Positions 5,014 to 47,186 of a stretch of DNA of 64,000 bases are shown here, in pieces. Each line of letters opens with the position of its first letter. Position 1 is the stretch's first letter. Source of the stretch: a virus (Duplodnaviria > Caudoviricetes); IMG/VR virus record IMGVR_UViG_3300032007_000010. One strand, given 5' to 3'. The translations under genes were made by a program, and so were the position numbers. Under the pieces are notes generated by a model that was not told the origin of the DNA, did no database searches, and was given only the letters and a program-made list of their open reading frames with translations.

Positions 5014-6816
5014 ATGAGCGTCGATTATATAAAGATGCTGAAGCAGACGGACAAGCTCCAGATTCATGCAGATCTGGATACACTGGATCTGTACTGCGAA
5101 TATTTGCTCAACTATGAAAATCGCAACATCAATTTCTCCAATCTGTCGAACCTGAAGGAATACTTCAGTCGTGTGAGCGAGGATAGTTTCAAACAGAACG
5201 AGGCCAAAATGGCCCGTTATTTTTTCATCCATTATTATCTCGAGGGTAGGCTCGACAAGGGGATTGTCTCTCCGAAGATATGCATGCAATATGTGCTTGA
5301 TCATGTATCAAAGAAGTACGCGGCCATAATCAAGCGCGATGTGATGGAGGGGATCCAGCACAATCGCATGAGCAAGAAGGACATCGAGTTCATGAACGAC
5401 ATGATCTTCAGTCAGCTCAACACCTTCTTCCTCAACGATTATAAAGAACCCATCATGAAGATGTTGGCGGATCTCAACAACAATGAGCTTGGTCGAGATG
5501 CGGAGGACTGTGACAATGTGATCAGGCTATTCCAGTCCATGATGAACAAGCTCACGACGGCTCGGCGCAAATCACGCCAAGAGAATCGTTTTGATCTGGT
5601 GGATGAGGATCATTTCAACGCGGTGATGATGGAGGCGGCGGAACGCGCACTTTCGACGGCACACTATCTCATCACCGGTTGGCAGGGTCTGAACAAGATG
5701 CTCGGCGGTGGTTTCGAAGATGCTCGTGTCTACAACTTCATCGGTGCGACGGGTGGTTTCAAATCAGGTCTGCTGCTGAACATCATGAAGCAGATCAAGC
5801 TCTACAACAAGGGCAGAGCCCACAAGGATCCGACCAAGCGACCGACGATACTGTTTCTGTCCCAGGAAAACAACATCTGGGAAACCTTCCTGCGCATCTA
5901 TGGCATCTTCGGCGGAACCGACATCAAGGCTCACAGCGTCAAAGACATCCTCAAGATCATGCGTGATGGCGGATTCCGTGTGGTCCAGGATGAACTCGAT
6001 ATCAACATCGAGTTCAGATACTATGGCAACATGGACATCGGTGTTCCGGACATCAAGGGCATCGTCGAAGAGCTGGATAACTCCGGCAAGGAGGTTATCT
6101 GCATCATCCAGGACTACATCGAACGTCTTCGTCCTCCCTATTCTGGCGTGGAGAAACGCAATGCACTCGCCGACGTGTCGAACCAGATGCACGATCTGGC
6201 CATCGAGCTTGACATTCCGATCATCACCGCATCACAGTTCAACCGCGAGGGCGTTGCAACCGTGGAAGAAGCGCGAGAAAAGGGTCACGTGGACATCGGT
6301 AAGAAGGTGGGTACCGGGAACATCTCGGAATCCTTTGGCATGCTCAAGAACTTCGATGCCAACATTGCCATCGTGGTTGAATATGATTCGAGCGAGCAAC
6401 GGTACTATCTGTCCTTCAGACGCTTGAAGTTCCGCGGCGATACCACCGATGGCATGGATTACTTCCTGCAACCGTTCATGGGACAGAACACCATGATTCG
6501 ACTCATGGATGATATATCCACCGGACCTGTCTATCGTCTCAGTCTCCTCGACGAGCTTGCAGCGCAGATCCAGGAGGACCGCGATGCAATCATCGACATC
6601 ACTCGTCGAGAGGTAAGCTTCCTGGATCAGATCACCGACGATCCGCAGGATGTGGATGCCGCAGAGTTCATGAATCTGGTTCGCCAGGATGTGGAGCAAT
6701 CCGCGGTTCCGCAGGACGACATGCTTCGTGATGCGGACGGTTTCTGGATTCTCATTCCGCGGATGCAACAGCTGGATCTCAGCGGTCTCAACGTGGTTGG
6801 GGCCATGTCGCACTGA
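5014..6816 (+). CDS. dnaB: DnaB-like (SF4) replicative helicase, jumbo-phage type
   Basis: ITGWQGLNKMLGGGF, Walker A GATGGFKS, IIQDYI, ITASQFNR; acidic C-terminal tail with the DADGFWIL tag. Confidence 0.88.
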   Translation: MSVDYIKMLKQTDKLQIHADLDTLDLYCEYLLNYENRNINFSNLSNLKEYFSRVSEDSFKQNEAKMARYFFIHYYLEGRLDKGIVSPKICMQYVLDHVSKKYAAIIKRDVMEGIQHNRMSKKDIEFMNDMIFSQLNTFFLNDYKEPIMKMLADLNNNELGRDAEDCDNVIRLFQSMMNKLTTARRKSRQENRFDLVDEDHFNAVMMEAAERALSTAHYLITGWQGLNKMLGGGFEDARVYNFIGATGGFKSGLLLNIMKQIKLYNKGRAHKDPTKRPTILFLSQENNIWETFLRIYGIFGGTDIKAHSVKDILKIMRDGGFRVVQDELDINIEFRYYGNMDIGVPDIKGIVEELDNSGKEVICIIQDYIERLRPPYSGVEKRNALADVSNQMHDLAIELDIPIITASQFNREGVATVEEAREKGHVDIGKKVGTGNISESFGMLKNFDANIAIVVEYDSSEQRYYLSFRRLKFRGDTTDGMDYFLQPFMGQNTMIRLMDDISTGPVYRLSLLDELAAQIQEDRDAIIDITRREVSFLDQITDDPQDVDAAEFMNLVRQDVEQSAVPQDDMLRDADGFWILIPRMQQLDLSGLNVVGAMSH

Positions 6817-6830
6817 GAGGAGTATTTGGT

Positions 6831-7115
6831 ATGCCGTTGTTTAATAAGGTTATCAATGCCGATGGCACAATCTGCAACCCTCCAACCAACCCACTTATCA
6901 ACAAGTATCCACCAATACCAGATGGAACCACCGTTTGTGATGGCTACTCATGCATGTGGTGTGGTCGTTGCCCCATGGGTGAATATTGGAAGGTTCCGGA
7001 AGAAGATCGCGATACATATGAAGGATATGTCAAAGAACTTGATTCATACATTAGAGAACATAACGGTTCGGCAGGTATACTTGGCCTGACACTTGTTATC
7101 GGTCAGAATGAATGA
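6831..7115 (+). CDS. Small Cys-rich hypothetical protein
   Basis: CDGYSCMWCGRCP; AGGAG RBS. Confidence 0.65.
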   Translation: MPLFNKVINADGTICNPPTNPLINKYPPIPDGTTVCDGYSCMWCGRCPMGEYWKVPEEDRDTYEGYVKELDSYIREHNGSAGILGLTLVIGQNE

Positions 7116-7134
7116 AATGAATGGAGGGAATTGT

Positions 7135-7587
7135 ATGAGACAAAGATTAACCAAGAAGTTTGAGAACGCCGAGCATCGCGCCAACATCGCCAACATCAAC
7201 AAGAACATCGAGCGGATGAAGGAGCTTCATCCGCGCTATTCCGCGGGTGAGGTCAGCGACGGTTTTCATACCTTCAACGAGCTCTACGATCATCGAGCAC
7301 TGCTCTTCGCCGCGTTGGTCAACAGCACGCTCAACAGCGTCGCCTGGAAATCCAGGCAACATGCTGACCCTGCCTATCCCATGTACGAGGGCATGTTCAT
7401 CGTAGGTATCGACACTCCGATCGGGCAGGCCACCTATCACTACGATATCGACCCGTACTGGGACATGTTCCATTGCAAGGAACTCGAGCGTGCGCCAAAG
7501 TATGACGGTCACAGTCCCACCGATGCGGTCGAGCGCATTTTCCAGATGGCAAGCGGTGAACTTGGCCCGCAGGTGGATGCCCAATGA
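7135..7587 (+). CDS. Conserved phage protein (WDGH-like domain)
   Basis: SDGFHTFNELYDHR ... GQATYHY ... KYDGHS pattern. Confidence 0.7.
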   Translation: MRQRLTKKFENAEHRANIANINKNIERMKELHPRYSAGEVSDGFHTFNELYDHRALLFAALVNSTLNSVAWKSRQHADPAYPMYEGMFIVGIDTPIGQATYHYDIDPYWDMFHCKELERAPKYDGHSPTDAVERIFQMASGELGPQVDAQ

Positions 7588-8129
7588 ATGATCTCTTTCA
7601 AAAGTATGTGTTCTGGGATTTCGACGGTGTTCTGTGCACCTACCAGGCTCTGCCGGATCGGTGTCACATTATGACCGATGAATACCTCAAATCCTTCATA
7701 ACCAAACCAGACCAGCCATTTTCATGCAGTCGAGCGCCAAAGACGCTGGTAGAACTTCAGCAGAGTCTTGACGTGGACAGACAATACGTTCTCACCGAGG
7801 AAACCTCTTCGCTGGAACATGCCGCCAAACTTTCATTCCTCCGAAAGAACCACTATTGTTTTAACCCGGACAGAGTCATCGGTGTATCCTCAAAGGATCA
7901 GAAGGTTGTGGTCATGGAAGCGATCTATGAGCGTGAACTGGCGCACATGACGAAGTTCTGGAGCGATGAATTGCTCGGGGTCGATCCTTTCCTGTCCACG
8001 GAGATCATCAAGCAACGCACGGCTAAGCTTCGGAAAGATTTCGTGCTCATCGAAGATACCGTGAGTAACATCAACGCCGCCGAAGATGCTGGGTTTTCGG
8101 CGATCCACATCACATCACTCATGCCATAA
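7584..8129 (+). CDS. HAD-superfamily hydrolase/phosphatase
   Basis: Motif I WDFDGVL; motif IV LIEDTVSNINAAEDAG. Confidence 0.8.
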   Translation: MNDLFQKYVFWDFDGVLCTYQALPDRCHIMTDEYLKSFITKPDQPFSCSRAPKTLVELQQSLDVDRQYVLTEETSSLEHAAKLSFLRKNHYCFNPDRVIGVSSKDQKVVVMEAIYERELAHMTKFWSDELLGVDPFLSTEIIKQRTAKLRKDFVLIEDTVSNINAAEDAGFSAIHITSLMP

Positions 8130-14741: not shown

Positions 14742-17108
14742 ATGGCGCGCATATATACTGCCGATCAAATAGAGGTAATAGAGTCGGATCGCCTTCGCGT
14801 ACGCTCCTCTCCGAGCATGTACGTCCCCGACATCTATCTGGCCGGCTACTATCATTTGCTATGGGAGCTCATCTCAAACTCCATCGATGAGCTCATGGCA
14901 CCGGACAGCACATCGCGCTCGGTGACCGTCTATTTTGACAAGAAGACCCACACCTTCGGCGTGGACGACGACGGTGCGGGAATACCGCTCGAGAAGCTCA
15001 GGGACGTGCTCACCAAGCTGGCCGCATCCGGCAAGTTTCACAACGGAGACGGTGGTGCATATCTCACATCCGGCGGACGCTGGGGACATGGTCTCAAGGC
15101 CTGTGTCTTTCTGGCAAAGAACGCCACCTTTAGCAGTTTCAGGGATGGAAAGTACATCACCTACACCATCAAGGATGGCGAGATCGTGGACGAGAAACAT
15201 GGCAAGAGTGACCAGCATGGTACATCCTGCCGCTTTGACATAGATCCGGCCATCATCAACCACAGCGATGCGGATGTGAAGGAGATCGAGGAACGTCTCC
15301 AGCTCACATCCTACATATATCCCGATCTCAAGATCAAGCTCATCGTGCTCGAGAACGGCAAAGAGGTCGAAAAGATCAAGTATGGCGGCAAGGATATTGT
15401 TGACAAGGTCAAGAAATGGAAACCGGACACTCCAATCCTTAGAATCACCAAGGACCAAAAGGTTACCTACCTCAAGACCATCACCGACGACGATCTCACC
15501 ACCGAGACGGTATATATCGACCTGGCTTTCGCCTACTCCGAGGCATCGCTGGACAAGGAAGCCAATAGCACCATACTCACTATCTGCAATGGTATCAATA
15601 CCTATCTGATGGGAACACACTGGGATGGTCTGAAGCTCGGTATTCAGAAATTTTTCAAGGAAAACGTGATTCCCAAGTTCAAGGGAAAGGACAAGGACCT
15701 CAACATCCTTCCGAGCGATATGACCACCGGTATTGCTGCATTCATCACTGTTCGTGTGGTAGATCCGATCTTCACCGGACAGGAAAAGGCCATGCTCATG
15801 AACCAGGAAGTTAAAACCGCGGTCAGGGATGCCGTCTATGAGTATCTCTGCAATGCTAAATCCTCGGAGATAAACTCCATGGTAGATTTTGTGAAGCGTG
15901 TCACCCGTGGGCGCATCTCTTCCAAGAAAACTCGCAAGAAGGATGTATCCAACGCCTTTTCAAAGGACGCGCTCGACAAATTCTACGACATCACCTACAA
16001 TCTTAAGACCGAGGCTCCCGAGCTTCTGCTGGTGGAGGGTGATTCGGCACTGGACAATGCGGCGCTGGCTCGTGATCAGTATAATCAGGCACTGTATCCA
16101 ATCAAGAGACCAAAGAACGTTTTCGATATGGATGCTGCGGTGGTCAACCGAATGAAGACCACCTTTAATGATGTGCTGGATATCTGCGGCATTTCCGCCG
16201 GCAAAGATTGTGATCCTGGCAAGTCACTCATGACCAGAATTCTCGTGCTCACTGATGGTGATGTGGACGGCGATGATATCTGCATCGGCGTGGTCTGTCT
16301 GCTCTGGAAACATTGCAGACCCATGATCGATGCTGGAATGGTTGGACGCATTTTGCCACCGGCCTATGCAATTCCAATCGGAAAAGATCGCTACGAGTTC
16401 GTACGTTCCCAGCGCGAGTTCTTTGGTCAGATTGTGAAAAAGTTTATCAAGAAGCACACAGTCTTCTATCTTGGCAAAGAGCTTAAGGGTAAGGATCTTC
16501 GTCAGTTTATTGAGATCAACTTCGAATATGACACAACCCTCGAAGCATTAGCCAACCGCTACTGCTGTGACCCCAAGGTGATGGAATACATCGCCTGGAA
16601 CTATCATGGTGATTGGAAGGATCAGAAGAAATCCAACTGGCAGAAAATCATGCGGCGCTACTCTGGTATTCGCGTGCTCGAGGAGAATGGAACGCTTGTG
16701 CTCGATGGCGATATCCCCGGCGCAGACTATATGAATCTGGCCCTGGACAAGCACTTCCATAAGCATGTGAATCGTTTCAAGGAACACCAGAAACAGAACG
16801 GTTCGCTCGGCGGTTACACCATCGACGGCGAGAAGGAGAAGACGCTCTACGATGTGATGCACACCGTACGTGACGAAATCCCCAAGTCTGTGCGGAGATT
16901 CAAGGGACTCGGTGAGCTCGATCCGGATGAAATCAGAGATCTCTGCCTCGATCGCGAGAAACGTACCGTGGTCGTTTTCAAGTCCGATGACTTCGAAAAG
17001 GATGAGGATAAGATCAATGTCATGCTCTCATCTAAGAAGGAGTGGGCAGATGCTCGCAAGGACCTAGTATTCAAAAGCGAACTAAGCCTGATTGATCTAG
17101 ACACATAG
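14742..17108 (+). CDS. gyrB: Type IIA topoisomerase subunit B (GyrB/ParE-like)
   Basis: GHKL motifs ELISNSIDE, DDGAGIP, GGRWGHG; TOPRIM motifs VEGDSA, TDGDVDG; RFKGLGE. Confidence 0.92.
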   Translation: MARIYTADQIEVIESDRLRVRSSPSMYVPDIYLAGYYHLLWELISNSIDELMAPDSTSRSVTVYFDKKTHTFGVDDDGAGIPLEKLRDVLTKLAASGKFHNGDGGAYLTSGGRWGHGLKACVFLAKNATFSSFRDGKYITYTIKDGEIVDEKHGKSDQHGTSCRFDIDPAIINHSDADVKEIEERLQLTSYIYPDLKIKLIVLENGKEVEKIKYGGKDIVDKVKKWKPDTPILRITKDQKVTYLKTITDDDLTTETVYIDLAFAYSEASLDKEANSTILTICNGINTYLMGTHWDGLKLGIQKFFKENVIPKFKGKDKDLNILPSDMTTGIAAFITVRVVDPIFTGQEKAMLMNQEVKTAVRDAVYEYLCNAKSSEINSMVDFVKRVTRGRISSKKTRKKDVSNAFSKDALDKFYDITYNLKTEAPELLLVEGDSALDNAALARDQYNQALYPIKRPKNVFDMDAAVVNRMKTTFNDVLDICGISAGKDCDPGKSLMTRILVLTDGDVDGDDICIGVVCLLWKHCRPMIDAGMVGRILPPAYAIPIGKDRYEFVRSQREFFGQIVKKFIKKHTVFYLGKELKGKDLRQFIEINFEYDTTLEALANRYCCDPKVMEYIAWNYHGDWKDQKKSNWQKIMRRYSGIRVLEENGTLVLDGDIPGADYMNLALDKHFHKHVNRFKEHQKQNGSLGGYTIDGEKEKTLYDVMHTVRDEIPKSVRRFKGLGELDPDEIRDLCLDREKRTVVVFKSDDFEKDEDKINVMLSSKKEWADARKDLVFKSELSLIDLDT

Positions 17109-17508: not shown

Positions 17509-20151
17509 ATGCCAAAGAAGGAAACGGTCAAGAAACCTGATTCCGAACCCAAGAAAACCAAAAAGGGTCGGGACGAAGAAGGTTTTATTGTGCTTAGACC
17601 AATCCCCGGAGGCCAGTTTGACCTCTACATGAAGAAATCCAAGCACAGGAAAACCAAAAAAGAAACCAAGATTCCAAAGAATTCCAACAAATTGCTCGAA
17701 CAGATCGACAAGAAGGAGCTCTTTGATGAGGCCTATGGCATGGACACGGAGAATATGACCGAGGTTCAGCTTGGTAAATATGTGCTCGAGAAAGGTCTCA
17801 ACTATGCGCTGAACGTGAACATCGGTCGTCAGATTCCGCGCATCGAGGATGGGCTCAAACCCGTCGAGCGCCGAATCCTCTACACCATGTATCTCAACAA
17901 AAACTACAATGGTAACGCCGACAAGGTGGCCACCGTGGCGGGCAGTGTCATCGCACACTTCCATCCTCATGGCGATCTGTCGCTCTATGATACCATCTAC
18001 CGACTGGGTCGTCGCTACGCAATGCAGATTCCATACATACGTGCCCATGGTAACTATGGTTCCATGACCGATGCTAAGCCGGCGGCACCGAGGTATGCAT
18101 CCGCATCACTCATGCCATATTCCATGGACTGTTTCTTCAGTGAGATGGGAGCCCGCTATCCGATATTTGAGGTTACGGATAACTACCACTACTCGGAGAA
18201 GGAACCGATCTATCTCACCAGTAGATATCCGAATATTCTCATGCAGTGGAACCAGGGAATTGGCAAGGGTGCAGCGGCCTGGCTCGGAGCGTTCAATTCA
18301 AAGGATGTCTTCGACGCCACGCTCAAGCTCATGGATGATCCAAACGCGAAGATCAATATCTATCCAGATGTACAGATGCCGGTGGACATCATCAACAAGA
18401 AGGAGCTCAAGGGCTGCTTTGATATGAAGAAGTTCTCGGTGAAGATGCGCGCCCAGTATAAAATCGTGGCCGACAAGAAGCGCGATGCCAATGGCAAGGT
18501 GATCGACAAGTTCTGCATTGTCTTCACTTCTCTACCAATCAATGTCATCGGTAAGACGGTCAAGAAAGAGATCCAACAGATCAAAGAAGACGATGCCAAG
18601 CTTCCTAGTGGCGAGAAGAAACTGCCAGAGGTAATCAACATCGAGATGGATCCGAATGCCAATACCCTTGGTGGCATCGAGTTCACGATCGAGTACGAGA
18701 AGGGCTACGATCCCATTGCTCTGGCCGAAAAGCTCTTCCGCATGACAAGCCTGGCAGTCACTGCCGGTGTACAGTACACGCTTGTGGTGGACAATAAGCT
18801 TGAGACCTTCACACCGAGACAGGTGCTCAACTACTGGATTGACCAGCGCTATGACCAGAAACGTCGCTTCTACCACCAGATGGCGCTCAAATGCGCGAAG
18901 GATCGGGCGATCCTCGAAGCCAAGTGCACACTCCTCGAGGCCAATGCCATTGACAAGGCCATCAAGATCATTCGTGCTTCCGCAAATGATGATGACGCGA
19001 TCGGGGAGCTTATGAAGGTCTTCGGGTTCACCCAATTCCAAGCATACTGGGTCCTTCGCATTGAGCTCAGAACGCTCAACCATGCGAACATTAGAGATCT
19101 TCGTGAACAACGCGACCGCACCATTGCTGACTACAAACGCTACCGCAAACTCCTCTCTGATGAAACCGCCATCAAGGATGCAGTGCGTGACGATCTCATT
19201 GAGGGTCGAAAGAAGTATGCGAAGGATCGCATTGCACCGATCTTCGATCTCGGAGACCTCAGTTCCCAGGCTGACCCCGACGAGGAAAAGACCATCTACT
19301 GGAATAGTACCACCTTCTATTCGGTGCAGTCTGATACGGATCGCAAGGCCATCCGAGGCCAGCTCGACAAGTCCATGCATGGTCTCCACATCAAGAATTC
19401 TGATCGTATTCTGGTGATCAGCACACGAGGGGAGCCCAAGGTTCTGGATGGATTTGCCTTCGGAAGCACAACCGCCGGCATCAACTTCTCGCAGGTTGCG
19501 CATCTGGAGGTCGCCGCGTTGATCAAACTCGACAAAAACATCGATGCGCTTGCGATGGTTACCGGTGCTGGGTTTGGCAAGATTGTTCCCATGGCGGACA
19601 TCATTTCGAACATCAAGAGTCGCATGATCAACCTGAACGATGGAGACAAGCTCGTCGCGGCGATCCCGCTGACCAAGAAAGCCAATGGAATGATTTGCAT
19701 GATTCATGGCGAAGAACTGCACTGCGCCAGAGTGAGCGACTTCCCGGTGCTCAAACGTTCCGCCGCCGGCAATCGCATCGCAAAGGTTGACAATGGGTAC
19801 TTCACGGGTGCATGCCATGTTCCCGAGGCGGACAACCTGGTCTACTACGGAGAGTTTGGCTATGCCAAGGTGATACCGACAACCATCATGAAATTCCCGA
19901 AATCCAAGAAGTGCTGTGTACTCAAGCTTGGAAAGGATGTGTTCGGTGCTCTTCCGCTTTCGAACAATGGTGGCATGCTCAACTATGACGATGAGCTCGG
20001 AACCGAGGAGGTAAAACTTGCGGTGGATAAGATGGTGCATCTCATCTCCGGCAAGAACGAGACCAAGTTCCGCATCGGAACCTCCATAAGCTCAGCAGTC
20101 AAGCTCTTCAAGATTGGGCGCAATGAATTCTACCAGCTCTCGATCAAGTGA
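17509..20151 (+). CDS. gyrA: Type IIA topoisomerase subunit A (GyrA/ParC-like) with beta-pinwheel CTD
   Basis: RQIPRIEDGLKPVERRILY, HPHGD, GNYGS, catalytic AAPRY; N-terminal extension with the DEEGFIVL tag. Confidence 0.92.
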   Translation: MPKKETVKKPDSEPKKTKKGRDEEGFIVLRPIPGGQFDLYMKKSKHRKTKKETKIPKNSNKLLEQIDKKELFDEAYGMDTENMTEVQLGKYVLEKGLNYALNVNIGRQIPRIEDGLKPVERRILYTMYLNKNYNGNADKVATVAGSVIAHFHPHGDLSLYDTIYRLGRRYAMQIPYIRAHGNYGSMTDAKPAAPRYASASLMPYSMDCFFSEMGARYPIFEVTDNYHYSEKEPIYLTSRYPNILMQWNQGIGKGAAAWLGAFNSKDVFDATLKLMDDPNAKINIYPDVQMPVDIINKKELKGCFDMKKFSVKMRAQYKIVADKKRDANGKVIDKFCIVFTSLPINVIGKTVKKEIQQIKEDDAKLPSGEKKLPEVINIEMDPNANTLGGIEFTIEYEKGYDPIALAEKLFRMTSLAVTAGVQYTLVVDNKLETFTPRQVLNYWIDQRYDQKRRFYHQMALKCAKDRAILEAKCTLLEANAIDKAIKIIRASANDDDAIGELMKVFGFTQFQAYWVLRIELRTLNHANIRDLREQRDRTIADYKRYRKLLSDETAIKDAVRDDLIEGRKKYAKDRIAPIFDLGDLSSQADPDEEKTIYWNSTTFYSVQSDTDRKAIRGQLDKSMHGLHIKNSDRILVISTRGEPKVLDGFAFGSTTAGINFSQVAHLEVAALIKLDKNIDALAMVTGAGFGKIVPMADIISNIKSRMINLNDGDKLVAAIPLTKKANGMICMIHGEELHCARVSDFPVLKRSAAGNRIAKVDNGYFTGACHVPEADNLVYYGEFGYAKVIPTTIMKFPKSKKCCVLKLGKDVFGALPLSNNGGMLNYDDELGTEEVKLAVDKMVHLISGKNETKFRIGTSISSAVKLFKIGRNEFYQLSIK

Positions 20152-33278: not shown

Positions 33279-33974
33279 ATGAAAATGATCACCACGGATC
33301 GTTGTGCTGAGATTTGTGTGCGTCTTGCGAATGAGTATCTCATGCCTGTGGCGTTGTCCACCATGGACGGGCAGGTTCCGTCCATGACATTGAAGGTCTA
33401 TCGTTCCGAGGAACGTGATGACTGGACCGCGACCGTTCGTCTCAAGAATTCACTCACCATCTCAACCTTCAACTGTGAGATCTATGTGCAGGAGATTCTG
33501 CAGCTCTGTCGTGCCTGTAAGCTCTGGCTCGTCACCGAGGAAGTTTTCACCGTGGTGGCGGCATTCTATGAACTCCATGGCATCTTTCAGCAGGTACACA
33601 TGAACTTCACCGACAATGTGGAGCGAGACTACGATTCCATGATGGCCGGTGCCGGACATTCGACCTATGAATTTATCCGAAGCCAGCGGAATCTCGACAC
33701 GCTCGAATCCTGTGTGCTGGATCTGGTGTTCTACCAATCCATGATCTTCACCAACAACTACAAATATGCTCCGAAGAATGCGATGGTCGGTGATCTCATC
33801 GTCGATGTGCAGACTCGTTATCGTGACATCATGCTGGAACAGCATCCCGAGGCATATCGCAGCGCCAGGCGCCAGAAAGCACAGAACTATCTCGTCGATG
33901 AGGAAGGCTTTATCCTCTTGGAACCCATCAATCGTCACGAGAATACCCAGTATTTTGGCAAGCTCGATGGCTAG
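33279..33974 (+). CDS. Hypothetical protein carrying a C-terminal DEEGFILL tag
   Basis: AGGAGGT RBS; class I promoter. Confidence 0.8.
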   Translation: MKMITTDRCAEICVRLANEYLMPVALSTMDGQVPSMTLKVYRSEERDDWTATVRLKNSLTISTFNCEIYVQEILQLCRACKLWLVTEEVFTVVAAFYELHGIFQQVHMNFTDNVERDYDSMMAGAGHSTYEFIRSQRNLDTLESCVLDLVFYQSMIFTNNYKYAPKNAMVGDLIVDVQTRYRDIMLEQHPEAYRSARRQKAQNYLVDEEGFILLEPINRHENTQYFGKLDG

Positions 33975-34388: not shown

Positions 34389-36431
34389 ATGAGCAACAAG
34401 AAGAAGATCATGCCCGAAATCGAGAGACAGGTACGAGCCCAGGATGCTAATCTATACTATCCAACGGATAGGCTTGGGCCAGGATCTGTCATGACCCAGC
34501 AATCGCACACAAATGCTTCTCGTTTGATAATGGAAAATCATCAAATGAGCGACTGCATCAACATCAAGGATCCGGAACCGCCACTGGTACCGACCGGCTT
34601 CGAAAATGTCATGGGACAGTATTCCTTCATGACCAAGCGGGCCGACGGTGACTACGTGATCGTTGCGATATTCAAGAAGAATCAGTACAATGCGGTATAC
34701 ATCGGCTATGATAAGAAGCATCACCACTATGATGCCTGGAAGCGTCAGGAGATAGAGGAACATTCCGAGGGTTTCTGCACTCGCTATGATAACTCATATC
34801 TCGATTCGCTAGAGGTTGGCGATAAGATCAAGAAGGGTGACTATGTGAAAACGTCGAACGCCTTCGACAAGTATCGCAACTATGCACTCGGAAAGAATCT
34901 GAACACCCTCTACATGGTCAGCGCCCAGAATCTCGAGGATGGCATCATGGTCATGAATGGTGCCGAAAACAAGATGAATGCATACCACTGCGAGACGCTC
35001 ACCATCGGTCTCGCCAACAATCAAATCCTCATCAACTGGTATGGCGATGATGACCACTATCAGGGCATTCCGCTCGTTGGCGAGAAGACCAAAAAGGGCA
35101 TTTTGGCTGTGATTCGGAGGATCGATCATAGCATCGCTCCCTATGCGCTCAAGAAGAAGCGTCTCCAGCACATGGAGCGGACCGACGAAAGACGCGTTGG
35201 CAATGGACGTGTCATAGATATCGACATCCGTTTCAATGGTCCCACCGATAAACTTCCGACCACCGGAGCGAATAAGATGCTCACCGAGCTGTATCTGGAG
35301 CAGCAGAAATACTATCGAAAGCTCTATGAGTATATGATCAACATCGCCAACACCGCCTACGAGAAGGGCGATACCTACTCCGACAACTTTAGCATCATCT
35401 GCGAAGAAGCGCACAAATATGTCGACGCAATCGGCTTCTTCGGAGACAACAGTGATTCCGTGTATTCTGCGGAGCAGATGAAGATCAGCATCACGCTGCT
35501 CGAGGAAGAGAAGATGATCGTCGGTTCCAAGATGGTCGGCCGCTATGGCGACAAGGGTGTCATATCCCGCGTCTATACACCCGAGGAATCGTGGCACATG
35601 GAGGATGGAACCCCCATCGAGCTGGTGGTTGCGACCCTCGGCATCGTCGGTCGACTGAATCAGTCCCAGATGAACGAGTGCAATATTACCGAGCTCAGCA
35701 ACACCGCGGTGGAGATGATGCGTGCCACCGGTGATCTCGACATGAAGCTTGCCATCGTGCATCGGCTCATGAAGTATCTGAACTCTGACGAGGCTGACGA
35801 TTTTCGAAGGTTCACGAGACACATGGACTCCTCCGAGAAGAAGAAGCTGTGCCGTCGCATCGAGCGCGAGGGTATCTTCATCGTGCAGGATCCCATTGAC
35901 AATGCCGACATGTTCCAGATCGGCAAGGCTTACAAGGATTTCCCGCCGAACTTCCAGCACGTGATCTTCCCCGACGGCGGCAAGTCCATGTACAAGGTGA
36001 TCTGCTCCAAGAAATTCTACATGCGACTCAAGCAGGATCCGAAGGAAAAGTATTCGGCAAGATCCAGGGGCCCCGTCAATCCCATCACCACATTGCCGGC
36101 AAAGTCCAACCAGAAGAAGCGTGGTCTCGAACCCGTGTCCGATGTTCCGGTTCGCATCGGTGAGTACGAGCAGGAGGTGCTCAATGGCATGACCAACCAC
36201 CCGAAGGTCTGTGCCGACTTCATCGTTGAGAATTCGACGTCCTTCGAGGCGAAGATGCGCATGGCCGAGCACCAATACCTCGGTGATCTCGACGAAGATC
36301 TCGACATCACTGGCATGGAGTTTTCGGGTCAGAAGAACATCGAGGCGATCGACGCCTACAACTACATGTTTGGCGCACGCATCCGCCTCGAGGTCGAGGA
36401 GGCGAAGCCCGGTGAGTATTTCACGGATTGA
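34389..36431 (+). CDS. Non-virion RNA polymerase beta subunit, C-terminal half (AR9 gp089 / phiKZ gp71-73-like)
   Basis: SRLIMENHQ, PPLVPTGFE, GKN...NLEDG, GSKMVGRYGDKGVIS, GIVGRLN, FYMRLKQ, YSARS, VRIGEYE. Confidence 0.9.
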   Translation: MSNKKKIMPEIERQVRAQDANLYYPTDRLGPGSVMTQQSHTNASRLIMENHQMSDCINIKDPEPPLVPTGFENVMGQYSFMTKRADGDYVIVAIFKKNQYNAVYIGYDKKHHHYDAWKRQEIEEHSEGFCTRYDNSYLDSLEVGDKIKKGDYVKTSNAFDKYRNYALGKNLNTLYMVSAQNLEDGIMVMNGAENKMNAYHCETLTIGLANNQILINWYGDDDHYQGIPLVGEKTKKGILAVIRRIDHSIAPYALKKKRLQHMERTDERRVGNGRVIDIDIRFNGPTDKLPTTGANKMLTELYLEQQKYYRKLYEYMINIANTAYEKGDTYSDNFSIICEEAHKYVDAIGFFGDNSDSVYSAEQMKISITLLEEEKMIVGSKMVGRYGDKGVISRVYTPEESWHMEDGTPIELVVATLGIVGRLNQSQMNECNITELSNTAVEMMRATGDLDMKLAIVHRLMKYLNSDEADDFRRFTRHMDSSEKKKLCRRIEREGIFIVQDPIDNADMFQIGKAYKDFPPNFQHVIFPDGGKSMYKVICSKKFYMRLKQDPKEKYSARSRGPVNPITTLPAKSNQKKRGLEPVSDVPVRIGEYEQEVLNGMTNHPKVCADFIVENSTSFEAKMRMAEHQYLGDLDEDLDITGMEFSGQKNIEAIDAYNYMFGARIRLEVEEAKPGEYFTD

Positions 36432-36797: not shown

Positions 36798-37535
36798 ATG
36801 GCACCGAGAAAGAAAAAGAATCCTGCAATCGAAACCGAAATCGACAAGAGCGAGGAGAACAAGCAGATGCTTCCCGAGGCACCGGAGGAACTCACGCCGA
36901 GCGAATACTTCAACATCCTCAACGAGCACTCGGCGAAGGCCTCGTCCGAAACGTTGCAGAAACTCTACCAGAATACCATGAAACTCATGAAGAAATATCA
37001 GATCACGGGCCAGAAGAAGGGCGCGCTCAAGCTCTACAACTTTGCCAGACTCTGCGAGAAGGAGCTTCGCGTGCTCGACGCAGGCATCGACACCTATGTG
37101 GAGCGCCAGGACGTTGATGAGTATATCAGTAAGATCACCAAGAAGAGCGTTGTCATCATCGAGCTTGAGAACTATGAACGCGACATCCCGGATGACATCG
37201 TCGAGGAGATCGCACGGCTCAAGCAGAATAATATATTCGATGCATACTTCATAGTCTTCACCGACTACACCGGCAAGGAACGCAAGAAGGTCGAGGAGGA
37301 GAAGCGCGAGAAAGATCCGATTCTCTTTGGTGCGCTCAAGATCGGCGACCAGATCTCCACGAGACTATATCACATTGCATCCTGGGAGGATGAGTACTGC
37401 GATCTCACCCTCGATAAGATGGTCAAAGAATACGCCAAGAACCATGACAATGCAAACATGGAATCCAAGCTCAGTGACTTCGGGTCCCTCGATGAGTTCA
37501 AGAATTCCTTCAACGAGCATCTGGCGAACACATGA
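36798..37535 (+). CDS. Phage hypothetical protein
   Basis: AAAGGA RBS; KDPILFG ... WEDEYCDLTLD; biased codons. Confidence 0.8.
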   Translation: MAPRKKKNPAIETEIDKSEENKQMLPEAPEELTPSEYFNILNEHSAKASSETLQKLYQNTMKLMKKYQITGQKKGALKLYNFARLCEKELRVLDAGIDTYVERQDVDEYISKITKKSVVIIELENYERDIPDDIVEEIARLKQNNIFDAYFIVFTDYTGKERKKVEEEKREKDPILFGALKIGDQISTRLYHIASWEDEYCDLTLDKMVKEYAKNHDNANMESKLSDFGSLDEFKNSFNEHLANT

Positions 37536-38788
37536 AAATGAAAAGCAAGGGAATCGACGGGGATATCGATCTGACCGAAAATGGAACCTTTCGCAGAGGC
37601 GTTTGTTCACCGCTCACGTTGGATGAGCTCAAACCGGCAAAGCTTCCCTGGGATAGGAATGGGAAATATGCGAACAAGATCTCATATGACTTTGATTCGT
37701 ACGAGAGATTGTGGCTTGATACCAGCTATGAGGGCATCATTGAAAATATCAACAACAACCTCGTCTTTGATGGTGACGAAATCGAGTATGATGATCAATA
37801 TGACCAGGTTGCTGAGGTTCTGAGACGAATGCAAAAGAAACGTATCGAACGCGTGCGAGAATCCACAGATCCCGAAATGCTAAGATTGCTCAATCTTGAT
37901 CGAATCCACATCAAAGACGGGCGTGTTATCCATGATACGGATTCTCAATATGCTCGTAATGTTGGCTGGAAACCTGGCAAGACCTGGGCCCTCGCTAGCC
38001 TGACGTATTCTAGCACAACCGGTACTATTAGCCTAAACAATACAACCACTAGTACTAGCCTATACAACACTGTGTCAATATCGGTGCGTGACGGTGACGA
38101 CATTACTCCGACCATCTTTGGAACAACGAGGTTGACCGAAGACGAGTGGAAGGGAAGGACCTTGATCACGGGCAGAGGCGATCAGCTTCGCAGAAAGCTT
38201 GATCTATATGCATACATATCCGTCGTGCGTGACATGCTCGAAGCGCATCAATCTGCCGAGAATAGACGGAGCACCTGTGAGTGCTGTGGGAAACAGTTCG
38301 TATACACACCTAAGTGGGGCAAACTATCCCTTTGCCAGACCTGTGCATTCGCAGAAGAACTCAAGCTTACTCTCGACCACTTCGCTGTTTATCGACAACA
38401 TGCATGCATGAAAGACTTTGTCAAGCAGGATATGTCTGCTGAAAAATTTGATAAGCATCACAGCTTTGCGGAGATGGATCAGAGCTCATGGGCGAGTTGT
38501 CGTGAAGACAAGACCATTGACTATTTCTTCCAGGAGGTATACCGAGATCGCGGTATACATTTGCTTCGTCGTCCTCGCAATTCCCATGAACTGAGGGTGA
38601 ATCTTGACAATGGTGAATATGCGGACGAAGAAGATTACGTTCGTGGTTCGTCTGAGCTTACCTACGAAAAGGCGCATATTGATCGGCAAGATGGTTATGT
38701 GAGTGATTTAGTTACCTTACACACGATGCTAGGCGAGCCGACCATGCTAACTGGCAACATCACTGTCAACAGACATGGTTGGTTATGA
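37532..38788 (+). CDS. Hypothetical protein with a Zn ribbon and Ser/Thr-rich linker
   Basis: CECC...CQTC; codon usage less biased than neighbours. Confidence 0.75.
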   Translation: MKMKSKGIDGDIDLTENGTFRRGVCSPLTLDELKPAKLPWDRNGKYANKISYDFDSYERLWLDTSYEGIIENINNNLVFDGDEIEYDDQYDQVAEVLRRMQKKRIERVRESTDPEMLRLLNLDRIHIKDGRVIHDTDSQYARNVGWKPGKTWALASLTYSSTTGTISLNNTTTSTSLYNTVSISVRDGDDITPTIFGTTRLTEDEWKGRTLITGRGDQLRRKLDLYAYISVVRDMLEAHQSAENRRSTCECCGKQFVYTPKWGKLSLCQTCAFAEELKLTLDHFAVYRQHACMKDFVKQDMSAEKFDKHHSFAEMDQSSWASCREDKTIDYFFQEVYRDRGIHLLRRPRNSHELRVNLDNGEYADEEDYVRGSSELTYEKAHIDRQDGYVSDLVTLHTMLGEPTMLTGNITVNRHGWL

Positions 38789-40539: not shown

Positions 40540-42900
40540 ATGAGCAAGAACAAGAAGAAATCGAAGGTCTCTCTGGACAAATCTGTCGCAGAAGCCGCTC
40601 TCTACACGGGAGAGGATCTGGACGAGGATGGTTTCTTCATCCTCAAACCGACAGATGAGGGAAGGAAGCGCATCGATTCCAACAAACCAAAGCTCCGCGT
40701 CATCGAGGCCGAAGATTTCGAGCAGAACAAGGTGCTTCGAGAGATTGGCTATGACATTGAGCCGATCAGTGACATGGTGGATCGCATCGAGGATCACATT
40801 CGCCAGAACCGTTTCACCAAAGGCATTTCCGAATTCGACGCGCGCACCTTCGCCGGTTTCATCACCGAGCTCGAGAAGCTCAATCCGGAGGATAAGAATC
40901 CCGCGATCAAGCCGATGTTCGAGATTGCCCGCCGACTGATCACCATCGGAAAGTCGTACTACGAGTATGATACCGAGGTGCGAAACATCTTTTCGGATCG
41001 TCAGTATGACGCGCTCATCTCCATGTACAACAAGACCGGAAATCCCGAACCCACCGGCATCATTCCGAAGGGTCACAAAACTCTTCAGAAGGCGGCGCAG
41101 ACCTACAAGACGCTGCACAATAACATGGACAAGTGCTATATCATCCACGACGGTGAACCGATTCCGGAAGGCGTGAAGGAAACAGATTCGGTGCAGTCGT
41201 TCCTGACGAGGGTCTACAAAGAGTGTGATATTCCGCACAGCGTGCAAATCACCGTGGATCTTTCGCCGAAGGAGGATGGCGTCTCCGTCAATGGTACGGT
41301 CCACAATGGCAAGCTTCGCGGACCACAGACCCGCGGAGATGCGAACGAATCGGTGGTGGTGATCGGACTCAACAACGTCACGATTGCCGACGAGAAACTT
41401 GACCATGATGATTTCGGGATCCAGTTCGAGGCAATCTGTACCCGCGAGAATGCCAAGAAGGCGGAAGAGTATCTCAAGCTCGAGACTCCCTACGCATCTC
41501 CGAGACATGCCGCGGCCGGAATCATCCACAGGCTCAGCACCATGGAGGATTCCTACCTTGCGAGTCTCATCAGCCTGTATCCGATCAATTCCGAGGGTCT
41601 CGAAGGTACCTATCTTGAGAGAATGGACTTTCTGCGGAATTTTGCACTGATGCCCGCGGATACCCCCTCCAGAAGGCTCGTGACGGGCAATTTCGAAGAA
41701 CTCTTGTCCCAGATTCAAAAATACTTCGAGGAAATGATCGATGCACGTTCCGAGCTCGGTCATTCCATCGACGGCATTGTGATCAGCATCGCCAACGACG
41801 AATATCAGGAGCGCATGGGCAGACTCGGTCGCACCAATAAATGGCAGATTGCGCTCAAGTTCAATCCGGCTTCCGAGAATTCCAAGGCGAGCTATATCCG
41901 TCTGGATTCTGGACGCAAAGGATATCGAACCCTGCAACTCTATCTCGAGCATCCGGTTCTGCTCGATGGCGTCGAATATGATCATGTGCCAATCTTGTCC
42001 ACGCGTCTATTCAAGGAACACAATCTCCGGCATGGCACCGTGGTCAACATCCATCGAGTCGGCGATGTGATCCCGGCAATCAGCGTGGTCGAAGAGGGCA
42101 AGGGCGAGAGACTCAGGCTCCCGGAGGTTTGTCCGAGCTGTGGCAAACGCCTCGTGATCAAGAACGAGAAGCTCTACTGCGACAATGATCGTTGTCCCGA
42201 CAATCTCGTAGGGCTCCTCGTTGGGTTCTTCGAAACCATGGGCATGGACGGCTATTCGGATTCCTTCGCACGCCTCCTCATCGAGAAGATGCATGTGACG
42301 TCGATCGGAGATCTGCTCGACCTCGAAGATGAGGACTTCAGGAAGGCCGATTGTCTCGGTGCACTATCCGTCGGAGTCGCTGATCTGCTCACCAAGGCAA
42401 TCGAATCCAAGCGAGATTTTGAGATTCTCGGCGCGATGGGTATTCCAAACATGGGTTCCGCCAGAGCCCAGAAGTTTATCCAGGCGTTTGCCGAGGACAT
42501 CGATTGGACCGAAGAGGGGCCGGAGCTCATGCTCACGAACAAGTCCAAGGTCACAAAGGCTCTCAGCTTCGCACTCGCACCTTCGATGTTTGAGGACGCC
42601 AATGAGTTCTACTGGGGACACTGGTTCCAGAAATCCTGGAAGGCTCTCATTCCTCACATCAAGAAGAGGGTCAGCGGAGGAAAGGAGAAGATTACTCGGG
42701 TTGGACATCATGGTGGCAAGCTCAGTGCCGAAGTCCGCGCCGTCTGTGATAAGAACGGATTCATCATCACGGACGGTTCTGGTTTCGACATTCTCATCAC
42801 CACATCGCTCTCCGGAGGAGGAACCAAGATGAACCGAGCGAGGAAGTTGAACCTTCCTATCTATCTTCCCGAGAGCTTCATTGGGCAGTATGGTGCCTGA
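40540..42900 (+). CDS. ligA: NAD-dependent DNA ligase
   Basis: SDRQYD (Ia), PKEDG (motif I), TRGD, PRHAAAG, IDGIV, ALKF, GDVIP, CPSC...C...C, BRCT-like end; N-terminal extension with the DEDGFFIL tag. Confidence 0.92.
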   Translation: MSKNKKKSKVSLDKSVAEAALYTGEDLDEDGFFILKPTDEGRKRIDSNKPKLRVIEAEDFEQNKVLREIGYDIEPISDMVDRIEDHIRQNRFTKGISEFDARTFAGFITELEKLNPEDKNPAIKPMFEIARRLITIGKSYYEYDTEVRNIFSDRQYDALISMYNKTGNPEPTGIIPKGHKTLQKAAQTYKTLHNNMDKCYIIHDGEPIPEGVKETDSVQSFLTRVYKECDIPHSVQITVDLSPKEDGVSVNGTVHNGKLRGPQTRGDANESVVVIGLNNVTIADEKLDHDDFGIQFEAICTRENAKKAEEYLKLETPYASPRHAAAGIIHRLSTMEDSYLASLISLYPINSEGLEGTYLERMDFLRNFALMPADTPSRRLVTGNFEELLSQIQKYFEEMIDARSELGHSIDGIVISIANDEYQERMGRLGRTNKWQIALKFNPASENSKASYIRLDSGRKGYRTLQLYLEHPVLLDGVEYDHVPILSTRLFKEHNLRHGTVVNIHRVGDVIPAISVVEEGKGERLRLPEVCPSCGKRLVIKNEKLYCDNDRCPDNLVGLLVGFFETMGMDGYSDSFARLLIEKMHVTSIGDLLDLEDEDFRKADCLGALSVGVADLLTKAIESKRDFEILGAMGIPNMGSARAQKFIQAFAEDIDWTEEGPELMLTNKSKVTKALSFALAPSMFEDANEFYWGHWFQKSWKALIPHIKKRVSGGKEKITRVGHHGGKLSAEVRAVCDKNGFIITDGSGFDILITTSLSGGGTKMNRARKLNLPIYLPESFIGQYGA

Positions 42901-44260: not shown

Positions 44261-44295
44261 CCGAACGGATCGAGGATCTCGATCCAAACAAAACG

Positions 44296-44380: not shown

Positions 44381-44397
44381 CACATTCGGGATTCATC

Positions 44398-44408: not shown

Positions 44409-44439
44409 CTTGTGACAATTCGAGAAAGGAGATTTCCCA

Positions 44440-45261
44440 ATGTCCAAGAATAAGGATCCGCTGGATATGCTGGTGAACAATCATACCGTCCAGCGAGAAA
44501 TACTAAGGTATGACAATCATGATTACTTCAAGAACCGCATATGGCAATATATGCTGTTGCACAGATCCATGAATGGCAAGTCCCTGGCAGGATGGAGACG
44601 TTCTGATCACGTCGCAGCGACCGGAATTCATGTGGTTGTTGCCAAAAATGCGATACGTGTTGCCTTTTTGACCTCGGATAACATGATAGTCTGCTACAGA
44701 CTCACACTCTCGGGTCTCGCAGAGGACGACATGTATTGTCATGAGCAACTCATCGATGCCGAGATGCTCCATGATACCGCATCCTTCGTCTTTGCCGACA
44801 CCAACGACATCGAAATGCTGAGCACCGAGATTGAGCAGGGGCTTTTGGTGGAGCATGAGCACGAGGTTCATGATCAAGACGGCTTCGTTCTGCTTCGCAT
44901 GCGCAAAGACGACATCTTCGATAGGATCCCTGATATCATCGTCTACTATTCCAGCGAATTGAAGAAGGGTGATATGGCATACATCAATGGAAACTTCATC
45001 ACCACCATGATCGCACTCAAGTTTCCGGCCGCAAACATATCACATCACACCTTCACCCACAACAGCTGGATCACCGGCTATGGATACAATGTCAATGCCA
45101 AGCTCGTCGAAGAGATTCTCCGCGATGTGCGCATGTCGGATAAGGATAGCGTGCTGCGTGTCGAAGATATGGCCATGGCGCTAAACATCTTTGCGTCAGC
45201 CACTACCACCCCATCAAATGCCTACCAAGCACAGGCTCTCTACGATGGCGATCCATTCTAG
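44440..45261 (+). CDS. Hypothetical protein carrying an internal DQDGFVLL tag
   Basis: AAAGGAG RBS; co-transcribed with RNAP beta-N. Confidence 0.8.
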   Translation: MSKNKDPLDMLVNNHTVQREILRYDNHDYFKNRIWQYMLLHRSMNGKSLAGWRRSDHVAATGIHVVVAKNAIRVAFLTSDNMIVCYRLTLSGLAEDDMYCHEQLIDAEMLHDTASFVFADTNDIEMLSTEIEQGLLVEHEHEVHDQDGFVLLRMRKDDIFDRIPDIIVYYSSELKKGDMAYINGNFITTMIALKFPAANISHHTFTHNSWITGYGYNVNAKLVEEILRDVRMSDKDSVLRVEDMAMALNIFASATTTPSNAYQAQALYDGDPF

Positions 45262-45302
45262 AAGCGAACACCGAACATATAGATTTTTGGAGTGATAGCA
45301 GC

Positions 45303-47186
45303 ATGAGAGATTTTCTGGCAGAATATTGCAAGAAGAATGAAAAGAAGATAAACCCTGACCTGTTCAATCGCACATTCGATAAACCGCTGGTGGATTACAT
45401 CGTTGATACCTTCAAGAATCTCGAGGTATTGCCCGCGGTCAAGCTGAGATCCTGGGAATACATCACGGATCAGACCCAGATCCACACCTATGTCAACAAG
45501 CGCAACAAGCGCGATGTCAAGATCAAAAACAACAAGATTCTCGAACGGCTCTATACCATGGACGATTCGATCTACGACCTCTTGGTATTGCATTTTGAGC
45601 TCAAGGTAAAGGGTCAGCGAGCGGATATCGTTCGTCGTGTCTGGGTGCCCAAGGTGGTGGATGGGCACTACTATCTTCGCTCGGGCAAAAAGGTTCTCCC
45701 GCTCATCCAGATCGTGGACAATTCCACCTTCGTAAAGCAGGGCAACAAGAAGGAGGACAATGTTCTCAACTTCAAGACGACGCTGTATCCGATCAAGATC
45801 TATGCGATTCCGACCAAGATCAGCATCCTGGATCATGCCAAAGATGTCATCTGGAAGATTCCGCTCTTCCAGGTCGATCTCTTCACCAAACCCACGAATC
45901 CGCTGCTGTATTTCCTGGCCGAATACGGCATCGAGTCCACACTCGAGATGTTCAACCTCGAGGAGCTCGTTGCCATCACCCATGATGTGCTTGATCCGGA
46001 TCGGTACATGTATACGAAGATCAACAATCACGTGTACATCGAGGTGAACCGCAAGGCATTCTTTGCACATGAGTTTATCCCGCGCTTCGTGGTGACGCTG
46101 CACAATGCCCTCGCCGAGGACAAGCAGAAGCTCACGCTGCAGGATGTCTTTGATCGGGACTATTGGCTCGGTCGTCTCTCCGAGGTATTCTCGAAGAAGA
46201 GAAACCCGAACAAGGGTGAACGCGTGCTCATATCCTTCAAGAAGGTCATGGATCCATACACGAAGAAGCGTCTTCCACTGAAGAAATACCAGAAGAAGAA
46301 CACCTTCACCGTGATGAAGTGGATGCTGACAAACTTCGAGGACCTGCTCAAAAAGGACTCGAATGATTTGGCAACCAAGCGCATGCGCGCCAATGAGACC
46401 CAGGCATTCTTCATCGATTCCTACGTGACGAAAAATGTGAACAGTTTGCTCAACACGGATGATCCGTCCTTCGATCGGTACATGCGTCTATTCAATGCGA
46501 TATCCGAGGACATTGTGCTGAGATCGTCGCATTCGTCGGGAGGGAAATCCTCGCAGACATCGATGTTCCGCTTCGAGCGCTACAATGATTTCACCGCGCT
46601 GGAGCTCTCGCGTTTCACGCTCAAGGGACCGACCGGTCTCAACGGCGGAAAGAAGAAGACCAATCTCAAATATCGTGACATCTATCCGTCTCACCTTGGC
46701 AGGTTCGATCCGAACGTGTGCTCTTCGAGCGATCCAGGACTCACCGGATATCTCTGCATCAATGTTCAGTTCGATGAGAATGGATACTTCGATTCCAAGT
46801 CGGGGAAGTCGGAACCGAATGGGTACGAAGACTCCATCGACAAGGTGATCGAAAAGTATGCCGAACCTGGCTATGCACAGAAACGAGCCGACATCAAACA
46901 GAACGAGCTCAACCGCGATGCTGATGGTTTCATCGTTCTCCACCGTCGCAAATCGCAGAAGGAGATGACGGAGGAGTTCAACAAGAACCCGTGGAAGTAT
47001 GGTCTATATGATGCGGGAGATTATCTACTGCTTCAGCCGCGCTTCGAGGGACAACGTGATCCGAAGGGATTCATGATGCTCCAGCCAAGACGCAAGGAGC
47101 GGCACAAGCTCTTCGAGACCGAACCGCTGCGTGATAGCGAGGGCTTCCTCGTGCTCACCAAGCTCGAAAAGGGCAAGAAGAAATAA
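45303..47186 (+). CDS. Non-virion RNA polymerase beta subunit, N-terminal half (AR9 gp105-like) with a repeat-bearing C-terminal tail
   Basis: VPKVVDGHYYLRSGKKVLPLIQIVD, DYWLGRL, DLATKRMR, YRDIYPSHLGRFD...SSSDPGLTG. Confidence 0.88.
   Translation: MRDFLAEYCKKNEKKINPDLFNRTFDKPLVDYIVDTFKNLEVLPAVKLRSWEYITDQTQIHTYVNKRNKRDVKIKNNKILERLYTMDDSIYDLLVLHFELKVKGQRADIVRRVWVPKVVDGHYYLRSGKKVLPLIQIVDNSTFVKQGNKKEDNVLNFKTTLYPIKIYAIPTKISILDHAKDVIWKIPLFQVDLFTKPTNPLLYFLAEYGIESTLEMFNLEELVAITHDVLDPDRYMYTKINNHVYIEVNRKAFFAHEFIPRFVVTLHNALAEDKQKLTLQDVFDRDYWLGRLSEVFSKKRNPNKGERVLISFKKVMDPYTKKRLPLKKYQKKNTFTVMKWMLTNFEDLLKKDSNDLATKRMRANETQAFFIDSYVTKNVNSLLNTDDPSFDRYMRLFNAISEDIVLRSSHSSGGKSSQTSMFRFERYNDFTALELSRFTLKGPTGLNGGKKKTNLKYRDIYPSHLGRFDPNVCSSSDPGLTGYLCINVQFDENGYFDSKSGKSEPNGYEDSIDKVIEKYAEPGYAQKRADIKQNELNRDADGFIVLHRRKSQKEMTEEFNKNPWKYGLYDAGDYLLLQPRFEGQRDPKGFMMLQPRRKERHKLFETEPLRDSEGFLVLTKLEKGKKK

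Follow-up and report, generated by a model that had tools for sequence, protein, structure and literature searches.

A 12-residue peptide with the consensus R-D-x-[DE]-G-[FY]-I-[VI]-L-[KI]-[PR]-[RK] occurs eight times, on six unrelated proteins, in a 64,000-nucleotide stretch of viral DNA (IMG/VR record IMGVR_UViG_3300032007_000010; the whole stretch is referred to below as the window), and it recurs on proteins of the same kind in related genomes. Very probably this tag is a selected docking or address label that is specific to one phage clade, shared by its carriers and recognized by one reader. That the reader is single we infer from the common tag together with a concerted substitution of its aromatic residue in one lineage. 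Its identity is a more tentative matter: a 244-residue protein with a predicted PCNA/gp45 fold is our candidate, although we would not quite put it at even odds. No published description of the tag was found in open-access papers or on bioRxiv.

Eight copies of one peptide on six proteins of an uncultured jumbo phage

The window, which has about 50% GC and is coding nearly throughout on the + strand, belongs to an uncultured jumbo phage, and a nucleotide search among 50,697 phage genomes returned no near-identical record. Its replication and recombination genes encode a divergent DnaB (PF20307), GyrB, GyrA, an NAD-dependent ligase, a Dda-like helicase and a UvsX-like recombinase; the transcription genes encode the two halves of a split RNA polymerase (RNAP) beta subunit, and the virion genes a major head protein, a head maturation protease and one virion protein. 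The N-terminal half of the RNAP subunit (beta-N) matches gp105 of phage AR9 with 24% identity over residues 1-517. Among phages in culture, the nearest are therefore AR9/PBS1, phiR1-37 and the Staphylococcus jumbo phages, all of them very distant.

A sequence-only reading of the window had listed eight strict copies of the tag on six unrelated proteins. All eight lie in frame in long + strand open reading frames (ORFs), with coordinates and translations that proved exact, and the names given to four of the carriers hold by family matches and, for the RNAP subunit, by the match to AR9 gp105. The first copy, RDADGFWILIPR (6727..6762), occupies residues 572-583 of 600 in the C-terminal tail of the divergent DnaB-like helicase (5014..6816). 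The second, RDEEGFIVLRPI (17569..17604), lies at residues 21-32 of 880 in the N-terminal tail of the GyrA-like topoisomerase subunit (17509..20151), the Pfam core of which begins at residue 107; its partner GyrB (14742-17108) is untagged. The fourth, LDEDGFFILKPT (40618..40653), is found in the N-terminal tail of the NAD-dependent DNA ligase (40540..42900; residues 27-38 of 786, with the adenylation domain starting at 214), while the sixth, seventh and eighth (RDADGFIVLHRR, 46914..46949; RDPKGFMMLQPR, 47055..47090; RDSEGFLVLTKL, 47130..47165) follow one another in the C-terminal extension of the 627-residue non-virion RNAP beta-N subunit (45303..47186), which consists of a core (residues 1-517) and a tagged tail (518-627). 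In these four recognisable enzymes the tag thus stands outside the catalytic core, on terminal extensions, as had been proposed. The two remaining carriers have no family match: a 231-residue orphan (33279-33974) bears the third copy, VDEEGFILLEPI (33894..33929), near its C-terminus, and a 273-residue orphan just upstream of the RNAP gene (44440-45261) bears the fifth, HDQDGFVLLRMR (44869..44904), which is located not in a tail but in the middle of the protein, at residue 145.

The number of copies is far above what composition would produce. For the strict pattern, which was defined post hoc, 0.0096 matches are expected by chance in the 19,294 residues of the + strand ORF set, in agreement with the earlier estimate of well under one, and 2000 per-protein shuffles gave a mean of 0.0085 and a maximum of 1. 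The relaxed pattern is expected to match 0.14 times by chance, and neither form of the regular expression has any other match in the six frames of the window. Scored with a profile derived from them, the eight copies reach 16-22 bits and no other site exceeds 0.1 bits, a bimodal distribution which indicates that the tag is a discrete element rather than the tail of a distribution.

The copies also appear to be maintained at the level of the peptide. Identity between them is 78% at codon positions 1 and 2 and only 35% at position 3, and their 30-nucleotide flanks are 31-33% identical, which is the random level; because the third positions and the flanks are unconserved while the first two positions are kept, the view that selection acts on the peptide is borne out, and a DNA-level repeat or an in-frame mobile insertion can be ruled out. 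As read from its residues, the consensus would begin with a tight acidic turn, continue as a hydrophobic strand and finish in basic residues.

The tag is retained in relatives of the phage

A scan of IMG/VR with single proteins did not return relatives of the window, and an alignment-based scan recovered them: G001, a whole genome of 259,863 bp (100% complete, 37% GC); G002, a near-complete whole genome of 230,855 bp (41% GC); and G003, half a genome of 133,339 bp (46% GC). Core proteins of the window and these three relatives are 53-75% identical, yet their GC content spans 37% to 51%, a range that suggests very different hosts across which the spelling of the tag has been kept.

The tagged tail of the RNAP subunit offers the deepest view of this conservation. 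AR9 gp105, annotated as the N-terminal part of the non-virion RNAP beta subunit, is 496 residues long and aligns only to residues 1-517, so the tail represents an added extension, and in the AlphaFold2 model of the window protein it is predicted with low confidence (pLDDT 42-69) apart from a small beta-bridge turn modelled at each tag. A search of 5.8 billion proteins with this subunit yielded 200 relatives. Among the best 120 of the 200, which are 52-93% identical and many of which lie on contigs of 220-260 kb, every orthologue carries one to four matches to the loosened motif in its tail, and the second of the three RNAP tags (copy 7) is the best conserved, as D-x-K-G-F.

Conservation outside the RNAP was likewise evident in most of the other carriers. 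The DnaB tag is kept at the same position in G001, G002 and G003 (in the last as G-Y), and the orthologues of the 231-residue orphan carry theirs at the same position in all three genomes. The ligase tag is kept in G001 and G002 and is absent from the aligned N-terminal tail of G003, and GyrA of the relatives shows only a degenerate form at its very N-terminus, e.g., EFITLKPIPGG. The genes that occupy the slot of the 273-residue orphan in G001 and G002 have no detectable homology to it, yet both encode a tag in the middle of the protein.

Annotated tagged proteins act on nucleic acid, genome parasites included

We then took a census of the three relatives, using a second-round profile of the tag on our own gene calls. 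It found 23 tags in 20 proteins in G001, 18 tags in about 15 proteins in G002 and 8 tags in 7 proteins in G003; the loosened full motif occurs 25, 17 and 7 times, respectively, against shuffled means of 2.4, 2.1 and 1.2, so the motif is enriched over shuffled sequence in each genome. A single profile search at the same settings gave 17 matches in G001 and 12 in G002, and none in AR9 or phiKZ. Most tags (40/50, p = 2e-9) lie at most 60 residues from a protein end, with a median distance of 16.5 residues.

The annotated carriers of G001 comprise DnaB, ligase, RNAP beta-N, an SF2 helicase, a Bro-N/ANT protein and a PC4-like single-stranded DNA-binding protein, along with four HNH homing endonucleases and the two products of a diversity-generating retroelement, namely Avd and a doubly tagged reverse transcriptase. 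Independently, those of G002 include HNH endonucleases of two families, Avd, a reverse transcriptase and a DNA-binding protein. All annotated carriers thus handle DNA or RNA, as proteins of replication, transcription or mobile elements. In a small hand-made table, nucleic-acid handling applies to 12/12 tagged and 11/22 annotated untagged proteins (Fisher p = 0.003). No tag was found in proteins matching head, virion, protease, lysis or metabolic families, which upholds the earlier statement about virion proteins, and the major head protein, virion protein, head protease and transglycosylase of the window are all untagged. A capsid-targeting sequence of the T4 IP type is not supported as the identity of the tag, since no annotated carrier matches a virion family. 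The client list therefore indicates that the tag marks proteins working on nucleic acid, parasites of the phage genome included. The proposal that the tag couples replication with late transcription stands insofar as enzymes of both processes carry it, but it is too narrow: homing endonucleases, retroelement proteins, the Bro-N/ANT protein and the PC4-like protein are tagged as well, whereas the polymerase subunits, the Dda-like helicase and the UvsX-like recombinase are not.

Two loci illustrate the mobile carriers. The retroelement, with its reverse transcriptase and Avd both tagged, lies at L016:4893-7122 in G001 and at L033:7397-10360 in G002. The gyrB gene is a single 788-residue gene in the window and in G002, and only a 437-residue N-terminal piece of it was called in G001 and G003; in G001 a tagged HNH endonuclease gene adjoins this piece (L009:11851-14309), an arrangement that suggests a mobile insertion splitting gyrB.

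A concerted Phe-to-Tyr change points to one recognition surface

In G003 all eight tags read G-Y, compared with 1/49 elsewhere (p = 5e-9), and the copies within one RNAP tail are nearly always all-Phe or all-Tyr. Eight parallel substitutions in one lineage are difficult to account for unless all copies fit one surface or fit each other. The N-terminus of a 1385-residue RNAP subunit contains a tag-like stretch that lacks the glycine, NMAFMVLAPS in G001 (L012:9622-13779) and NHSYMVIAPS in G003, and this stretch repeats the Phe/Tyr difference that distinguishes the true tags of the two genomes.

A clamp-fold protein is the candidate reader

In G001, G002 and G003, the gene directly after that of a 721-residue polymerase subunit (phrog_3011) encodes a protein for which no sequence match was found in PDB or PHROGs. 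The 244-residue G001 protein (L016:1273-2007) was modelled with high confidence (pLDDT 90, pTM 0.84), and the top Foldseek matches of the model are all sliding clamps (T4 gp45, PCNA, 9-1-1 and the beta clamp, probability 1.00), with VIA Z scores against clamps of 10.3-12 over about 200 of the 244 residues. Among 1.84 billion representatives the family fills only 52 clusters, and it went undetected in both AR9 and phiKZ. A clamp-fold gene and a tag set occur together in three genomes, and IMG/VR added no new lineages; the contigs fetched with a view to the clamp gene of the window's lineage have 37-40% GC and therefore represent other lineages. Iyer et al. described the group-1 jumbo phages (phiKZ/AR9 type) as devoid of a classical sliding clamp (PMC7824862), which makes the fold assignment of interest in itself.

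Of the proteins found here, this one alone has a fold whose family is known for reading short terminal peptides of many clients, and the form of the tag (short, terminal, with an aromatic/aliphatic core and a basic end) fits such a reader. Precedents exist for clients of this kind. T4 ligase binds gp45 through a flexible loop (PMC6212786), late transcription of phage Mu uses the beta clamp (PMC12867686), and that clamp is likewise engaged by IS and Tn3 transposases and by the reverse transcriptase of a group II intron (PMC4549789, PMC11417375, PMC6698660). The clamp is favored as reader because ligase and late-transcription factors share it in T4 and because proteins of mobile elements attach to its bacterial counterpart.

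In the arrangement that we propose, the tag would be displayed on flexible terminal extensions of proteins acting on the replicating phage genome: the replicative helicase, gyrase, ligase and late RNA polymerase and, in the relatives, a second helicase, binders of single-stranded DNA or DNA, homing endonucleases and a mutagenic retroelement. One phage-encoded partner would read all the copies and concentrate these clients where phage DNA is replicated and transcribed, and the resident selfish elements would have taken over this handle as a way of getting to the DNA that they target. Such a system would be akin to the 'tool belt' of T4 gp45 or PCNA, though its motif would be new and its range of clients much wider.

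Several observations weigh against this arrangement, and in particular against the clamp as its hub. The clamp-fold gene lies outside the window and is seen only in relatives whose proteins are 53-75% identical. The polymerase is the canonical client of a clamp, and no tag was found in G001-G003 on either the 721-residue polymerase subunit or the part matching PF00136. Clamp loaders of the RFC or gamma type (PF00004, PF13177) went undetected in the same three genomes, although both families matched in 14/14 control genomes; a divergent loader or a loader-independent clamp may account for this. The tag is unlike the PIP box, QL[SD]LF and the T4 LDFLF sequence. (A prediction of the complex between the clamp-fold protein and the tagged RNAP tail of the same phage, residues 572-630, run without controls, gave ipSAE values of 0.01 and 0.05 against a mark of 0.32, and carries no weight in either direction.) The untagged polymerase, the lack of a detectable loader, the unfamiliar motif and the position of the gene outside the window all weaken the assignment. 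On the side of the clients, the Dda-like helicase, the UvsX-like recombinase, SbcC and GyrB are without a tag, as are the other RNAP subunits (beta-N is tagged and beta-C is not); some of these enzymes might be carried along by a partner that has the tag. Three HNH endonucleases of phrog_374/3377 are paralogues that may share one acquisition of the tag, so the client counts overstate the number of independent events, and the gene calls in G001-G003 come from a codon-bias caller written for the present analysis.

Further observations concern the polymerase genes and their surroundings. A 937-residue protein, P0167, has a clamp part at residues 696-933 preceded by a region that equals the polymerase subunit in length; probably polymerase and clamp are fused in it, which hints at a different, constitutive link between the two. 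In phiKZ, the 239-residue gp51 (L043:3036-3755) directly follows the DNA polymerase gp50, the same position and size as the clamp-fold gene, and comparison with the clamp family revealed no similarity of sequence or profile (hhalign probability 0.1). The PF00136 part of the polymerase is a single 682-residue ORF in G002; in G001 (L015:14479-17158) about 800 bp that contain no ORF, and may be a self-splicing intron, divide it into pieces of 335 and 291 residues. The gene directly after the PF00136 part was rejected as a clamp because it encodes a dNMP kinase (Walker A motif, phrog_139), and the long ORFs beside the polymerase at G1 138092-138910 and G2 176722-177465 were rejected as antisense artefacts.

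Alternative readers and mechanisms

The same tag could be read by another hub at the site of replication and transcription, such as the SSB-like protein (SSB, single-stranded DNA-binding protein) encoded two genes after the C-terminal part of the polymerase, a conserved protein of no known function or a scaffold; we regard this as rather unlikely but well worth considering. All the evidence for a shared reader applies equally to such a hub, and the untagged polymerase subunits and the undetected clamp loader speak for it. Candidates abound, for G001 has about 150 unannotated proteins, and near the polymerase genes lies one for a 351-residue protein whose arms are of low complexity and whose end, LDDFT, is acidic. 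However, no specific candidate comes with positive evidence, the clients of SSB hubs read the tail of the SSB and not the reverse, and among the proteins found here only the one with the clamp fold belongs to a fold family that reads short terminal peptides of many clients.

We judge it unlikely that the tag is no clamp handle at all but a linear address signal, which would be the first case of a bacterial virus using a short peptide as a localisation signal and would deliver the proteins that need phage DNA, parasites included, into a compartment not made of chimallin or into a condensate in which the tags themselves provide the cohesion. The first of these versions, an import or retention signal for a DNA compartment built from something other than chimallin, is on its own distinctly improbable. 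It would explain well why the client list amounts to everything that must touch phage DNA, selfish endonucleases and retroelement included, and why only one subunit per complex is tagged (GyrA and not GyrB, RNAP beta-N and not beta-C), as expected of piggy-back import; moreover, the phage falls within the group of jumbo phages with multisubunit RNAPs, which has one nucleus-building branch (PMC12908238). Yet the chimallin profile phrog_4795 found no match at E <= 1 in G001, which is complete, or in G002, G003 and AR9, whereas it recovered phiKZ at E = 1.8e-232, and AR9-like phages are described as lacking chimallin and as standing outside the nucleus-forming family (PMC13282480). An import signal of the phiKZ type becomes less likely with the failure to find chimallin. 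The reviews of phage-nucleus import that were searched turned up no linear signal, and both polymerase subunits, UvsX, Dda and SbcC would need entry although they are untagged. The idea of a common hub thus survives in part: the tag behaves as if read by one partner, given the uniform G-Y spelling of G003, and the relatives encode a clamp-fold protein, but a chimallin compartment finds no support.

The second version dispenses with a reader altogether. Here the tags would bind one another, with multi-tag proteins serving as the scaffold and single-tag proteins as the clients of a replication-factory condensate, a possibility that we consider very slight. The copy number is indeed variable and multivalent (three on the RNAP, two on the reverse transcriptase), the core is hydrophobic and strand-like, and a concerted change from Phe to Tyr is what one would expect if tags had to match each other. 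None of the tests made points specifically to self-association, though; the invariant Asp and Gly of the turn and the Pro and basic end look fitted to a pocket more than to a zipper, and most clients carry a single copy. Least plausible, and hardly to be credited, is a direct hook in which the tag and its basic flanks bind DNA or RNA in the manner of an AT-hook without a protein reader, for although Lys/Arg-rich flanks on proteins that handle nucleic acid fit this reading, acidic and hydrophobic residues (D, [DE], F, I, V, L) make up the conserved core and suit it poorly to nucleic-acid contact, and a genome-wide Phe-to-Tyr change would be unexpected for a DNA binder.

Comparison with known peptide-docking systems

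Among known systems, the proposed docking on a phage clamp most resembles that of T4/RB69 gp45, which engages the tail of the gp43 polymerase, gp33, gp55 and a loop of the ligase (PMC6212786). In both cases a phage clamp fold is encoded beside a polymerase gene, and a short hydrophobic/aromatic peptide is placed on flexible ends or loops of the ligase and the late-transcription machinery, so that one reader would serve many clients. The differences are considerable: here the motif is unrelated, the polymerase is untagged, no clamp loader was found and the clamp is matched by fold only, while the range of clients is far wider (DnaB, GyrA, helicase, homing endonucleases, the reverse transcriptase and Avd of the retroelement, Bro-N/ANT and PC4-like proteins).

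The PIP-box and APIM networks of PCNA in archaea and eukaryotes likewise place a short terminal motif with basic flanks on dozens of unrelated DNA-transaction proteins, and the best structural matches of the candidate reader are PCNA and 9-1-1 (Z 10-12). The APIM consensus is [KR]-[FYW]-[LIVA]-[LIVA]-[KR]. It resembles only the F-I-V-L-[KR] half of the tag, and neither it nor the PIP box has a counterpart of the invariant D-x-x-G turn before the aromatic residue; the present system, moreover, belongs to a phage and has a clade-specific spelling. Mobile elements that bind the beta clamp share with the tagged endonucleases and retroelement the use of a resident handle by selfish elements, but there the QL[SD]LF motif of the host is read by the host DnaN, whereas the tag is private to the phage clade. 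Import into the chimallivirus nucleus through PicA/Imp (PMC11087766, bioRxiv 10.1101/2024.03.27.586873) also sorts DNA and RNA enzymes, including intron endonucleases, from virion and metabolic proteins, and does so in a jumbo phage with multisubunit RNAPs; it differs in that no chimallin was found here and that no linear import signal appears in the reviews of that system that were searched.

If one peptide on about twenty proteins does address one partner, it would provide a direct handle on the organization of the DNA factory in an uncultured and widespread clade of 230-260 kb phages. The tag could then be used as a bait for the hub, as a predictor of further proteins that act on phage DNA and as a portable label, and selfish elements inside the phage would be seen to adopt the address label of the phage itself. 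A confident clamp fold beside the polymerase would revise the picture of group-1 jumbo phages as clamp-less (PMC7824862), and the genome-wide switch from Phe to Tyr would amount to a natural experiment on the co-evolution of a motif and its reader.

Other features of the window

Between the gene for the RNAP beta-C half (34389-36431) and that for the ligase lie a transposase-like gene (phrog_10081, E = 2e-61) and, overlapping it, a gene for 418 residues that belongs to no known family (together 36798-38788), both untagged and without an orthologue in G001, which probably constitute an insertion element. A different set of terminal sequences was noticed in three proteins: the UvsX-like recombinase (31386-32831) and its orthologues in G001-G003 end in a conserved D-x-M-D-[MI]-D-D-[ILMV]-F-x-x-[LM], which differs from the tag, the RNAP beta-C half ends in E-E-A-x-x-G-E-[YWA]-F-[TE]-D, and the SSB-like protein of G001 ends in LDDFT. 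Judged by their residues, these ends look like a second class of docking tails, of acidic-aromatic character.

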